This document shows positions 12,871 through 42,215 of a stretch of 64,000 bases of DNA, piece after piece (position 1 is the stretch's first letter; the number at the start of each line of letters is the position of its first letter). The translations under genes and the position numbers were made by a program. The notes under the pieces were generated by a model, which saw nothing but the letters and a program-made list of their open reading frames with translations, had not been told where the DNA came from and did no database searches. The stretch is from a virus (lineage: Duplodnaviria > Caudoviricetes). The stretch spans positions 1 through 64,000 of IMG/VR virus record IMGVR_UViG_3300002220_000189; one strand, given 5' to 3'.

Positions 12871-12901
12871 TATAAATAAATATGGTAAATTTTTATAAAT
12901 A
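12871..12901 (+). promoter_or_regulatory. Two T4-type late promoters
   Basis: TATAAATA at 12871 and 12894. Confidence 0.65.
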
Positions 12902-37930: not shown

Positions 37931-38092
37931 ATGATTGATAGGTATAAGTTGCAAGTTAAATGTCCTTGGTGTGCTTGGTGTGCAGAGGTTGAGCTAATTA
38001 TTAACGCACCAAAAGAAGCAGTTGACGATGCATCTAAGTTATTAGGTTATGAAATGCAAAAGCATTGGGATATTAGAAAACATGCTTTATGA
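37931..38092 (+). CDS. Small C2H2-like protein (53 aa, not in ORF track)
   Basis: AAGGGG RBS; CPWC...HWDIRKH. Confidence 0.4.
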   Translation: MIDRYKLQVKCPWCAWCAEVELIINAPKEAVDDASKLLGYEMQKHWDIRKHAL

Positions 38093-40157
38093 AGGTGATT
38101 GTTTAGACATAATGCTGACGTTAGAAGCTAATTCAGTAGATTCGATAGTAACAGATCCGCCTGCTGGTATATCATTTATGGGAAAAGAATGGGATAAAAA
38201 TAAAGGTGGTAGAGATAACTGGATTAAGTGGATGGAAGAAATTGCAATAGAATGCTTACGGGTTATCAAACCTGGAGGGCATGCTCTTGTATGGTCTATT
38301 CCAAGAACTTCTCATTGGACAGCAACGGCATGGGAGAATGCAGGATGGGAACCAAGAGATAAAATATATCATTGCTTTGGAACAGGATTTCCTAAATCGT
38401 TAGATATAAGTAAAAATCTGGATTCATTTGCTAAAAAAAGATGGTTTGATATAAATAAAGGTATAGATAATTTAGATAAAGGAGCTATACTTGAATTATG
38501 GAAAAGAGACTTAAACAATGTGAAATTTGTGGAGCAATTATTTCCAAAGAATATAATAGAAACTGGAATGAGTATAGAAAAAAACGATTTTGTTCAAGAA
38601 AATGTTCTGCTCAAAATCAATATAAAAAAATATTATGTAGATGCGATAATTGCGGAATTGAATTTTATAGATCAAAATCACATACAACAGGAAAAAAATC
38701 AATATATTGTTCAAGAGAATGCAGAAGTAAACATAAAACAATTACAAAACAATGTGAAATTTGCGGTAAAATTGTTACCAAACCTATATCAAATACTATT
38801 GAAAGCAAACATTTTTACTGTGGAATACAATGTTCAGGATTTGCTAAACGAAAACACAATTATACAGAAGAAAGTAGAAAAACACCTGAAAACTATATAT
38901 GGCGAACCACAATTATTAAACAATCAAACAATACTTGTATTATGTGCGGAGATAATAGAAGACTTGAAGTTCATCATATTAAACCTTTCTCCGTATTTCC
39001 AGAATTTAGATATGACATCTCAAATGGAATGTGTGTCTGCCACCGATGTCATTATTACAGAATACATGATGGAAAACCTAATTTTAAACATGGTAAATAT
39101 TCTAAAAAATAATGCTCTTATCAAATCTAAAGGTGCTGAAAGAAAAATCGTAGGAAAGATAACTGAAGGTAGAGCAGCAACACCTAGACAAGATATAAGA
39201 GGCGGGAAGTTTCATGCCTGTTCTGAGGGTGATACAAGAGGTTATGATGGAAGTAATATAACAGCACCATCAACAGAAGAAGCCAAACAATGGGATGGAT
39301 GGGGGACAGCACTAAAGCCAGCAGTAGAAGAATGGTGGTTATTTCGTAAACCATTAAGAGGAACAGTTGTAGAAAATGTTTTAGAACATGGTATTGGCGG
39401 ACTGAATATAGATGGTTGTAGGGTGGAAACAGCTCCTGATGATATACCTGGTTGGCATAAATCTGGAGCAAAAGGATCAGATGGTTACATGAATACAGAT
39501 ACGTTCAAAATTCGGAACATGACAGCAGAAGAAATACAGGAACGATGTGGCGGAAAAGGTCGTTGGCCAGCCAATCTTATCCATGATGGTAGTAATGAAG
39601 TGGTAGGGTTGTTCCCAAATACTGGTAAATCTGCTGGTGGTAAATCAGGACACACAGCCGCATATTGCGGTGGTTATAAAGAAGAATATTACGGTGATTT
39701 GAAGCCCGGCTATGGTGATAATGGTTCTGCTGCCCGTTTTTTCTATTGTGCAAAAGCATCAAGAGAAGAAAGAGAAGCTGGATGTGAGAATTTACCCGGA
39801 AGAAAAATGGATGAGAGTAGAAAAGAAGGTAATCCCGGAGGTGATAATCCAAGAAATAGAGGAGTTACCGAATATAAAAATCATCACCCGACTGTCAAAT
39901 CCTTAGAACTTATGCGATATTTATGTAAATTAATAACGCCTCCAAAAGGGATTGTTCTTGATCCGTTTATGGGTAGTGGAACAACAGGTATTGCTTGTAA
40001 ATTAGAAGGTTTTGATTTTATTGGAATTGATTTAGATCCAGAAAATGTTTCAATAGCAGAAGCTAGAATAAACCATTGGGAACATGTTATGGAAAAGAAA
40101 AAGAAAAAGAAAATAAAAAATAAAAAAGAAGTAGAAAATCCATTTTTGAAAGGGTGA
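38049..40157 (+). CDS. N4/N6 DNA methyltransferase (beta class; likely start 38082) with ~233-aa in-frame insertion
   Basis: GDC, TDPPA, GFPKS, GWGTALKP, GRWPAN, RFFYCAKAS, HPTVK, LDPFMGSGTTG. Confidence 0.88.
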   Translation: MKCKSIGILENMLYEGDCLDIMLTLEANSVDSIVTDPPAGISFMGKEWDKNKGGRDNWIKWMEEIAIECLRVIKPGGHALVWSIPRTSHWTATAWENAGWEPRDKIYHCFGTGFPKSLDISKNLDSFAKKRWFDINKGIDNLDKGAILELWKRDLNNVKFVEQLFPKNIIETGMSIEKNDFVQENVLLKINIKKYYVDAIIAELNFIDQNHIQQEKNQYIVQENAEVNIKQLQNNVKFAVKLLPNLYQILLKANIFTVEYNVQDLLNENTIIQKKVEKHLKTIYGEPQLLNNQTILVLCAEIIEDLKFIILNLSPYFQNLDMTSQMECVSATDVIITEYMMENLILNMVNILKNNALIKSKGAERKIVGKITEGRAATPRQDIRGGKFHACSEGDTRGYDGSNITAPSTEEAKQWDGWGTALKPAVEEWWLFRKPLRGTVVENVLEHGIGGLNIDGCRVETAPDDIPGWHKSGAKGSDGYMNTDTFKIRNMTAEEIQERCGGKGRWPANLIHDGSNEVVGLFPNTGKSAGGKSGHTAAYCGGYKEEYYGDLKPGYGDNGSAARFFYCAKASREEREAGCENLPGRKMDESRKEGNPGGDNPRNRGVTEYKNHHPTVKSLELMRYLCKLITPPKGIVLDPFMGSGTTGIACKLEGFDFIGIDLDPENVSIAEARINHWEHVMEKKKKKKIKNKKEVENPFLKG
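38498..39112 (+). CDS. Zinc-finger HNH endonuclease nested in the +2 frame of the methyltransferase
   Basis: Three CxxC...(F/Y)CxxxC fingers plus CIMCG...VHHIKP...NGMCVCHRCH; upstream AAGGAG. Confidence 0.85.
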   Translation: MEKRLKQCEICGAIISKEYNRNWNEYRKKRFCSRKCSAQNQYKKILCRCDNCGIEFYRSKSHTTGKKSIYCSRECRSKHKTITKQCEICGKIVTKPISNTIESKHFYCGIQCSGFAKRKHNYTEESRKTPENYIWRTTIIKQSNNTCIMCGDNRRLEVHHIKPFSVFPEFRYDISNGMCVCHRCHYYRIHDGKPNFKHGKYSKK

Positions 40158-41323: not shown

Positions 41324-41390
41324 TTGACATTTTATATATTTTATAGTACAATTACTTATACATGAAATTTTACAAATGTTTTTATAAATA
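41324..41390 (+). promoter_or_regulatory. sigma70 promoter plus late promoter
   Basis: TTGACA-N17-TACAAT (41324-41352); TATAAATA (41383). Confidence 0.65.
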
Positions 41391-41420: not shown

Positions 41421-42215
41421 ATGAAGATAAAATTAGGAATATATCATGAAATGTTTTCTAAAATAGATAAACCGGGAGTTTATCTTATCATAAATACTAA
41501 AAACAATAAATATTATGTAGGTAGTTCAGTAAATATATCAAAAAGATGGATAAATCACCAAAGATGTTTGAAATTAGGAATACATAAAAATCCTATATTA
41601 CAAAATTCATATAATAAATATGGTTCGGATTCTTTTGTTTTTATTATATTACAAAAAACTAACTGTATTAAAAGTGAAATACTATCATATGAACAATTTT
41701 GGTTAGATATGTTATTTGATATATGTCCAGAATGTCTTTACAATATATGTAAATCAGCAACATCTACTTTAGGTCGTACATTATCAAAAGAAACTAAAGA
41801 GAAAATAAGTAAATCTCATAAAGGTAAAAAACTTTCTTATGAAACCAGAAAAAAGATGTGTGAAAGTCATAAAGGTAATAATAATGGAATGTATGGAAAA
41901 AAACATACAGAAGAAACTAAAATAATTCAATCACAACATAAAAGGGGAATGTATAATGGTGATAACAATCCTTTTTATGGGAAAAAACATACTGATAAAA
42001 CAAAGAAAATAATCGGGAATAAAAATAGAGGTAAGATAAGTAGTAGAAGACTATTGAATATTGAGCAGGTATTAGAAATAAAAAAAATTATCCAGCAAAA
42101 ACCTCATAATATTATGTGGAAAGATTATTATTGTGAAATAGGAAAACAATATAATGTTAGTTCAAATTATATTCATAAAATAAAGAAAGGACAGAAATAT
42201 GGTAACGAGTATTGA
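41421..42215 (+). CDS. GIY-YIG homing endonuclease (I-TevI-like, NUMOD3)
   Basis: GVYLIIN..YYVGSS, LQNSYNKYG, MYGKKHTEETK, NPFYGKKH. Confidence 0.9.
   Translation: MKIKLGIYHEMFSKIDKPGVYLIINTKNNKYYVGSSVNISKRWINHQRCLKLGIHKNPILQNSYNKYGSDSFVFIILQKTNCIKSEILSYEQFWLDMLFDICPECLYNICKSATSTLGRTLSKETKEKISKSHKGKKLSYETRKKMCESHKGNNNGMYGKKHTEETKIIQSQHKRGMYNGDNNPFYGKKHTDKTKKIIGNKNRGKISSRRLLNIEQVLEIKKIIQQKPHNIMWKDYYCEIGKQYNVSSNYIHKIKKGQKYGNEY

Follow-up and report, generated by a model that had tools for sequence, protein, structure and literature searches.

A probable mobile HNH endonuclease cassette hidden out of frame within an open DNA methyltransferase gene of a Caudoviricetes virus

Organization of the methyltransferase locus

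We analysed a stretch of 64,000 nucleotides (nt) from a virus of the Caudoviricetes (positions 1 to 64,000 of the IMG/VR record IMGVR_UViG_3300002220_000189; this whole stretch is called the window below), in which the gene for a beta-class DNA methyltransferase (MTase) carries an insert that contains a complete HNH endonuclease gene in another reading frame, and in which the MTase frame stays open from end to end (Table 1). The MTase open reading frame (ORF) of 702 amino acids (aa) scored 94.6 bits against the Pfam family N6_N4_Mtase (cut-off 26.7), with matches at both ends of the ORF, and its relatives in the PDB, which are beta-class amino-methyltransferases, align with residues 6-81 and 609-677 only. 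An alternative start is found at 38085, the point where homology to the relatives starts. Motif I (FxGxG) is present, and its region aligns with the solved enzymes 9c3u and DpnA. For motif IV, the D/N/S-P-P followed by an aromatic residue that is typical of the class was not found, and the window reads DPPA instead of DPPY (38145-38160). The same DPPA is common to five insert-bearing genes (L007, L011, L015, L072, and L073) and to the uninterrupted homologue LR745208, and the DPPA enzymes may represent a candidate subfamily with unusual or reduced catalysis.

The product of the nested gene scored above the gathering cut-off for Pfam HNH (PF01844; 29.9 bits against 21.4) and matched PHROG 1271 at 2e-24. 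The cysteines of the three N-terminal Cys4 fingers and of the Cys4 site of the HNH core are all invariant in the HNH relatives, and the invariant residues of the core region comprise His159, His160, Asn176, His185, Cys147, Cys150, Cys181, and Cys184. A sequence search of the PDB with the HNH protein returned nothing at E ≤ 0.1. The ORF listing, the sequence itself, and the Pfam and PHROG matches confirm a preliminary description of this DNA, made from the letters alone, which had placed a complete 204-aa HNH protein in the +2 frame of an open methyltransferase. A frameshift fusion of the N-terminal part of the MTase to the HNH was also considered and was dropped, since a stop codon lies in the HNH frame two codons before the ATG in the window and Met1 is invariant.

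In the uninterrupted homologues (uncultured phage LR745208 and the mycobacteriophages Lilac and Taj), the SKxLD motif runs directly into K-x-AGAER, and therefore the insert corresponds to MTase residues 126-358, that is, 233 codons that are free of stops in the MTase frame. The preliminary description had given this junction correctly as ISKxxD running into xxGAER, and the alignment with uninterrupted homologues that it proposed reproduced the borders 38424-39122, with an ambiguity of 5 codons because SKxLD is present at both edges. The native peptide occurs in three copies, at the N edge, within the leader, and at the C edge. In the relatives the C edge is an intact native motif, identical in reading to the uninterrupted enzymes, and in the window this copy has diverged; the HNH stop codon overlaps its first two codons. 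The same architecture was found in Escherichia phage BUCT618, whose annotation shows one methyltransferase at this place. The BUCT618 gene had no match in 5,426 complete E. coli genomes, which left no recent pair of alleles with and without the insert from which the borders could be set to the nucleotide.

Table 1. Features of the methyltransferase locus (positions in the window)
Feature	Coordinates	Strand	Remarks
Beta-class N6/N4 DNA methyltransferase ORF	38049..40157	+	702 aa; frame open through insert; PF01555, 1e-26; PHROG 67
N-terminal predicted helices, MTase residues 120-154	38406..38510	+	two helices (N edge and leader); AlphaFold predicted local distance difference test (pLDDT) ~55-70
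N-edge copy of target peptide (SKNLD)	38409..38423	+	from comparison with uninterrupted homologues
Insertion, MTase residues 126-358	38424..39122	+	699 nt; absent from uninterrupted homologues; MTase-frame translation without Pfam or PHROG family
Leader between MTase N part and HNH ATG	38424..38497	+	74 nt; length fixed in most relatives
Target-peptide echo within leader	38448..38486	+	in relatives its codons furnish the -35 hexamer
TATAAATA, T4-type late-promoter-like motif	38450..38457	+	40 nt upstream of HNH ATG
Weak sigma70-like promoter (TAGATA, 16 nt, TATACT)	38464..38491	+	9/12 matches; 6 nt before ATG; positional homologue of the family promoter
AAGGAG, candidate Shine-Dalgarno	38479..38484	+	13 nt before HNH ATG; not conserved in relatives
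HNH endonuclease gene	38498..39112	+	204 aa; three Cys4 fingers, then C-terminal HNH core; offset +2 to MTase
C-terminal predicted helices, MTase residues 270-362	38856..39134	+	AlphaFold; last third of insert; MTase-frame conservation beyond that imposed by HNH
C edge, native methyltransferase sequence restarts	39108..39146	+	HNH stop codon (39110-39112) overlaps

The methyltransferase frame is kept free of stop codons

We recoded the HNH protein 200,000 times with the codon usage of the 41 other ORFs of the window and counted the stop codons arising in the MTase frame. The recoded genes contained 6.6 such stops on average, and only 20 of the 200,000 trials contained none (P = 1e-4). When the HNH gene's own codons, which are already biased, were permuted instead, the probability of zero stops was 0.001. 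Each NTA or NTG codon of the HNH gene in the window precedes a stop-avoiding codon, in all cases. Among the relatives, every same-orientation locus with an uninterrupted HNH frame has zero stops in the MTase frame, over a GC content of 28-55%, whereas a group of loci that carry the HNH gene in the opposite orientation, serving as a natural control, shows 4-8 stops in the same frame in all nine loci (the N-terminal part of the MTase is on the contig, and the orientation confirmed, in seven of the nine). Chance is excluded as the cause of the open MTase frame. These results support the inference in the preliminary description that selection holds the frame open: the codon shuffle suggested there shows a stop-free overlap to be rare by permutation and by recoding alike, and the stops in the MTase frame of homologues that would have contradicted it were not seen in same-orientation loci with an uninterrupted HNH frame.

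Constraint on the host-frame peptide and its predicted fold

We scored synonymous-codon identity at the columns where two HNH proteins have the same residue. In same-orientation pairs (55-70% protein identity) it was 0.57, compared with 0.44 and 0.39 in pairs with opposite-orientation copies, 0.35 in those stretches of the MTase genes of these pairs that code in a single frame, and 0.43 when genes were simulated with their own codon usage and stops were forbidden. At the protein level, identity in the MTase frame was 0.53 against 0.34 expected over HNH residues 121-195, and 0.24 against 0.23 expected over residues 61-120, where there is no excess. At both of its ends the insert is more strongly conserved in the MTase frame than the HNH sequence demands, which is a new observation. 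The insert had been regarded in the preliminary description as a shadow translation; in these comparisons this holds only in part.

In the AlphaFold model the MTase lobes were predicted with confidence, and the insert was mostly disordered (mean pLDDT of 54 and 45 in two runs). Helices were predicted at residues 120-154 and 270-362 with pLDDT values of ~45-73, and residues 154-268 between them were disordered with values below 30. The regional conservation in the MTase frame coincides with this division into predicted helical ends and a disordered middle.

Leader, promoter, and expression of the HNH gene

At first look the leader seemed a conserved peptide, but a promoter is written in its DNA, with the consensus TTGACA, N16, TATAAT, N6, ATG across the family. 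At least 10 of 12 positions agree with this consensus ahead of 31 of 51 distinct HNH ATGs, whereas the share among 6445 other ATGs of these loci is 0.6%. The -10 hexamer matches at five or more of its six positions in 27 of 34 cases, against 23% predicted when the same peptide is recoded with the codon usage of each locus, and the Ile codon inside it is ATA in 27 of 30 loci, against a background of 31%. In the opposite-orientation loci, which have no overlapping MTase peptide, the promoter is perfect and has an extended TG. Since only 6 nt separate the -10 hexamer from the ATG, the A of this codon is the predicted first nucleotide of the transcript, and judging from this spacing the HNH mRNA should be leaderless in the relatives with a consensus promoter.

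In the window itself, the sigma70-like sequence at the corresponding position is weak, and a TATAAATA motif lies further upstream. On the + strand, 8 of the 25 TATAAATA motifs are located 10-60 nt before an ORF start, compared with 1.3 expected at random, and the motif of the HNH gene is among them; examples of + strand sites are those at 12871, 16782, 35786, 41383, and 51212. This association with gene starts suggests that T4-type late promoters are present in this 127-kb virus contig. The AAGGAG pointed out for the HNH gene in the preliminary description is present as stated, but its spacing is long and it is unconserved in the family. Judged from these motifs, expression of the window HNH from a T4-type late promoter together with a Shine-Dalgarno sequence is plausible. 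Two further endonuclease-like genes were observed in the same contig, namely a free-standing GIY-YIG homing-endonuclease-like ORF of 264 aa, 1.3 kb downstream (41421-42215, + strand), with the TATAAATA at 41383 upstream of it, and a separate free-standing HNH of 216 aa at ~98.7-99.4 kb (L079:1432-2082, minus strand).

Relatives and distribution

Using an alignment of four HNH proteins as the query, we retrieved ~70 loci from metagenomes, IMG/VR, and three metagenome-assembled genomes (MAGs). About 40 of them have the identical layout, consisting of the N-terminal part of the MTase, the 74-nt leader, the HNH gene at offset +2, and the C-terminal part beginning ~20 nt past the HNH. A search of 1.84 billion proteins with a profile of the MTase-frame insert yielded, at E ≤ 1e-30, the representatives of 111 clusters formed at 50% identity; most of these proteins are 500-900 aa long, place the insert at approximately residues 90-360, and are matched over nearly the whole insert. 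Searches with the HNH protein were far less productive: a single-protein scan of IMG/VR gave one weak locus only, and a word-indexed protein search gave 18 matches only, probably because nested HNH genes are rarely called. The window HNH is only 50-61% identical to its relatives.

Two or three loci (L029, L014, and L051) appear decayed or frameshifted. L029 (566-1578) has stops in the methyltransferase leader and in the HNH gene, and the leader of L014 (951-2234) is out of frame with the N-terminal part, so these two are probably decaying or frameshifted copies. We also observed a sister arrangement in L004, L026, L030, L031, L034, L036, and L041 (for example, L004:1-1899, minus strand), in which the same HNH lineage occupies the same MTase site on the opposite strand. 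Here the N fragment stops 91 nt past the motif with a conserved 30-aa tail, and an ORF of ~250 codons antisense to the HNH gene, stop-free in five of six distinct loci, overlaps both the stop of the N fragment and the start of the C fragment; this overlap could reflect translational coupling or a split enzyme.

Identities of the HNH and MTase proteins among the loci are weakly correlated (r ~0.4). The closest MTase relatives of the window are in mixed states, being L015 with a same-orientation insert (76%), L034 with an opposite-orientation insert (74%), and LR745208 without an insert (72%). In these comparisons, the weak coupling and the mixed insert states fit homing.

Interpretation and alternatives

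Based on these observations, we suggest that the element belongs to the hidden, out-of-frame kind of mobile cassette with an HNH homing endonuclease and that the methyltransferase is translated through it without splicing, and we assign this reading a probability of roughly 0.8. The cassette would sit in the loop after the GFPKS motif of the beta-class enzyme, at the start of the variable region. Ribosomes would read the MTase through the cassette, in the frame one base after that of the HNH, and produce a single 702-aa protein, presumably still active, in which the additional 233 aa would be helical at both ends and flexible in between. Codon choice in the HNH gene is under selection that clears every stop from the MTase frame and would also keep the two ends of the insert as peptide, while translation of the HNH would begin independently at the HNH ATG. 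Most relatives have a consensus sigma70 promoter that stops 6 nt short of this ATG, and it would yield a leaderless transcript from the ATG; in the window this promoter appears degraded in an AT-rich phage, and TATAAATA and AAGGAG probably substitute for it. The nuclease presumably cuts insert-free alleles at the conserved site coding for SKxLD/AGAER, and repair would copy the cassette in. Of the two possibilities raised in the preliminary description, a splicing-free mobile element tolerated as a loop is thus the one supported by the open-frame selection, the AlphaFold model, and the Rfam and Pfam searches described below.

We consider it highly improbable that the insert is eventually lost from the RNA or the protein, be it through a compact self-splicing RNA that escaped recognition and has its core overlapping the HNH ORF, or through non-canonical protein splicing or proteolysis, in which case the open frame would be needed until removal only, or not at all. 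Removal would agree with the conserved site of the insert, with its opening by an echo of the flanking peptide, a feature that Arsenault et al. described as reminiscent of intron guide-sequence pairing (PMC11855218), and with the conservation of both insert ends, as would be the case for intein splicing blocks. However, an RNA intron gives no cause for ~230 stop-free codons across ~40 divergent loci and 111 clusters, and selection for an open frame would be pointless in it. An Rfam search found no family at E ≤ 10 in the window and no intron at the gathering threshold in 20 related loci, so that no match to a group I or group II RNA core was obtained in either, and the HNH ORF is flanked by 74 nt and ~10 nt only, the short flanks having been noted already in the preliminary description. 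At the protein level, a Pfam search of 26 MTase-frame inserts found no family and no Hint or intein domain, the first insert residue varies among relatives (S, Q, L, A, K, and others), and none of the inserts ends in HN followed by C/S/T. The combination of Hint splicing blocks, an N-terminal C/S/T, and a C-terminal HN followed by C/S/T is therefore absent from these inserts, which bears out the earlier statement that the MTase-frame insert has no intein ends. Because no intron or intein signature was found, we infer that splicing is absent, and an unspliced read-through mobile insert is the best reading.

Two other alternatives concern the function of the pair. The preliminary description also proposed a compact restriction-modification-like pair, and one can envisage a co-adapted unit in which the HNH cuts unmodified or insert-free DNA of competitors and the methyltransferase protects its own, as a nested restriction-modification-like or exclusion module. 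The arrangement is ancient and widespread with purifying selection on both frames, the cassette has its own promoter, and a precedent exists in the homing endonucleases of T-even phages, which mediate marker exclusion. We nevertheless regard such a unit as unlikely, since the divergence of HNH and MTase is weakly coupled (r ~0.4), this one HNH lineage is found in both orientations, also among close MTase relatives of the window, and its host genes may be split or read through, decayed copies exist (e.g., L029 with stops in both frames), close insert-free homologues are common, and nothing ties the HNH target to the recognition site of the methyltransferase; the proposed pair thus received no specific support. 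As far as sequence comparison indicates, either orientation, decay, insert-free relatives, and weak coupling together form the pattern of a selfish element. It is also very doubtful that the methyltransferase is no longer functional, an inactive relic or fragments whose open frame was inherited from a recent functional ancestor. The DPPA in motif IV and the diverged C-edge copy of the native motif in the window would suit a relic, and the methylase is reported to be dispensable in related mycobacteriophages (PMC11855218). On the other hand, with an HNH only 50-61% identical to its relatives there was ample time for the 6.6 expected stops and none arose, DPPA is shared with an uninterrupted homologue and with five insert-bearing genes whose motif I is otherwise intact, and the remainder of the 702-codon ORF shows no damage in DNA of ~28% GC.

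Several points weigh against the unspliced mobile cassette that we prefer, or against parts of it. The window element and its relatives are known from sequence alone, and related sequences are not independent samples in the cross-locus counts. The promoter match of 9/12 in the window is not above chance in AT-rich DNA, and TATAAATA is only mildly enriched in the window overall (41 matches against 32 expected). The pLDDT of the insert is low (25-73), which makes the helical ends a suggestion only, and the excess of synonymous conservation could partly result from shared ancestry or a nucleic-acid signal rather than from selection on the peptide. Finally, DPPA may mean that the window methyltransferase is impaired or atypical, to which the uninterrupted homologue with the same motif is a counterpoint.

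Beyond the mobile cassette as such, it is conceivable, at somewhat less than even odds, that the element is a true dual-coding unit, with helices that are themselves selected and with an HNH promoter that is independent of the host gene, gives a leaderless mRNA, and was rewired in the window to TATAAATA and a Shine-Dalgarno sequence. If this is true, the end helices would keep the two insert ends close to each other and thereby let the methyltransferase fold around the floppy 115-residue middle, and the self-contained promoter would explain the spread of one HNH lineage among phages of very different bacteria.

Comparison with known systems

A homing endonuclease that resides in an essential or useful gene classically does so within an intron or an intein. 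A third solution, the hidden-HNH design, dispenses with splicing and needs only a stop-free overlap, and it has been documented so far mainly in actinophages. According to our results the design has spread widely, being represented by 111 protein clusters, MAGs, an E. coli phage, and, in its sister type, a cyanophage; two different elements can share one gene, and selection on the host frame is measurable. With its position on the ATG, the family promoter offers an answer to the question left open by Arsenault et al. of how the hidden nuclease is expressed. Gene callers overlook these nucleases, as in the annotation of BUCT618, which has the methylase only, and the inflated methylase proteins contaminate protein families with shadow sequence.

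The ShiLan domain is a 202-aa insert in the mycobacteriophage methylase gp65 with an open host frame, an HNH in a third frame (PMC9957025; PMC11855218), and no intron or intein (Gosselin et al. 2023, PMC9957025; Arsenault, Gosselin & Gogarten 2025, PMC11855218). The hidden-HNH kind was therefore already published (PMC11855218), and the novelty implied in the preliminary description was overstated. The window element resembles ShiLan in many respects. It lies in the same methyltransferase family, PF01555 (the mycobacteriophage homologues are 40% identical to that of the window), and is an extra segment relative to uninterrupted homologues. This insert of ~200 codons is open in the host frame beyond chance, as judged from the window (P = 1e-4), the relatives, and the profile search, and it holds a complete zinc-finger HNH in an alternative frame at offset +2, as in ShiLan. 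The insert begins with an echo of the neighbouring host peptide and has the HNH stop codon at its 3' edge, and no self-splicing intron or intein is recognisable by Rfam, Pfam, or the junction residues. The predicted structure of the host frame is poor save some helices in both, and our models agree with the "hairpin or helical bundle on loops" predicted for ShiLan by Arsenault et al. (PMC11855218).

Detailed comparison nevertheless revealed that the two types differ from each other, and the window element has neither the ALKP site nor the central-core HNH that mark ShiLan proper. The ShiLan type is inserted after ALKP (in phage Mantra, Cr-LKS3, L013, and L017), ~60 residues downstream of the SKxLD used in the window. 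Its HNH has a central core between two fingers, whereas the window type has three fingers followed by a C-terminal core, and a tblastn search of the phage collection with the window HNH found no mycobacteriophage at E ≤ 1e-5. The window type starts with ATG after a 74-nt leader with an embedded promoter, while ShiLan starts with GTG 18 nt into the insert; Mantra, which carries the ShiLan type, is an atypical member without GTG at position 18. The hosts also differ, as the window type is found outside actinophages (the E. coli phage, MAGs of several phyla, and the AT-rich 127-kb virus contig). Lilac and Taj were examined as candidate ShiLan carriers and rejected, since Lilac has an intein and Taj a LAGLIDADG insert.

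The two types can occur together. L013 and L017 contain, besides the window-type element, a second hidden HNH of the ShiLan type at offset +2 after ALKP (L013:3910-4590 and L017:2010-2492), and the whole frame of 843-899 aa remains open in these genes. The ShiLan-type elements in these two loci have an ordinary Shine-Dalgarno sequence and no promoter on the ATG, suggesting that the promoter-on-ATG design belongs to the family of the window only. The methylase g59 of the cultured cyanophage Cr-LKS3 (Cylindrospermopsis phage, OM373202.1, L080; 539-2389) carries the ShiLan type only, as an unannotated HNH at 934-1548, and this shows that the ShiLan type is not restricted to actinophages.

Free-standing homing endonucleases can also split a host gene, as mobE does in nrdA of Aeromonas phage Aeh1. 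The window element is similar to these in being an endonuclease gene, intron-less and intein-less, within a conserved gene, but in those cases the host gene is translated in separate pieces, whereas the host frame of the window is continuous. The opposite-orientation relatives of the window HNH do split the host gene, as free-standing homing endonucleases do. In the mycobacteriophages Donovan, Fishburne, Seagreen, and Kari, the homologous methylase is annotated as methyltransferase/endonuclease/methyltransferase; these genes appear to be split by a free-standing endonuclease gene, a third mode of invasion in this enzyme family.

A second hidden HNH insertion has been described in Pacc40 gp60 (PMC11855218). 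It likewise has an out-of-frame HNH-like ORF in an open methylase frame, and related HNH genes also occur free-standing beside insert-free methylases, but the methylase belongs to a helicase-fused family and the 160-aa ORF is of uncertain HNH assignment; no relationship between it and the window element was detected. Inteins with out-of-frame or antisense homing endonucleases have been described as well (bioRxiv 10.1101/2025.01.02.630785; 10.64898/2026.09.14.751524). As in the window element, the endonuclease and the host polypeptide use different frames there, and the host frame runs open across the endonuclease gene, but the splicing domains of these inteins excise the insert, and none is detectable in the window element. 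To these systems, the present analysis adds the selection statistics for the open frame, the constraint on the insert ends, a family promoter that predicts leaderless transcripts, and the occurrence of two hidden HNH elements per gene, and the window element represents a widespread lineage that is distinct from ShiLan and is inserted elsewhere in the same family of enzymes.

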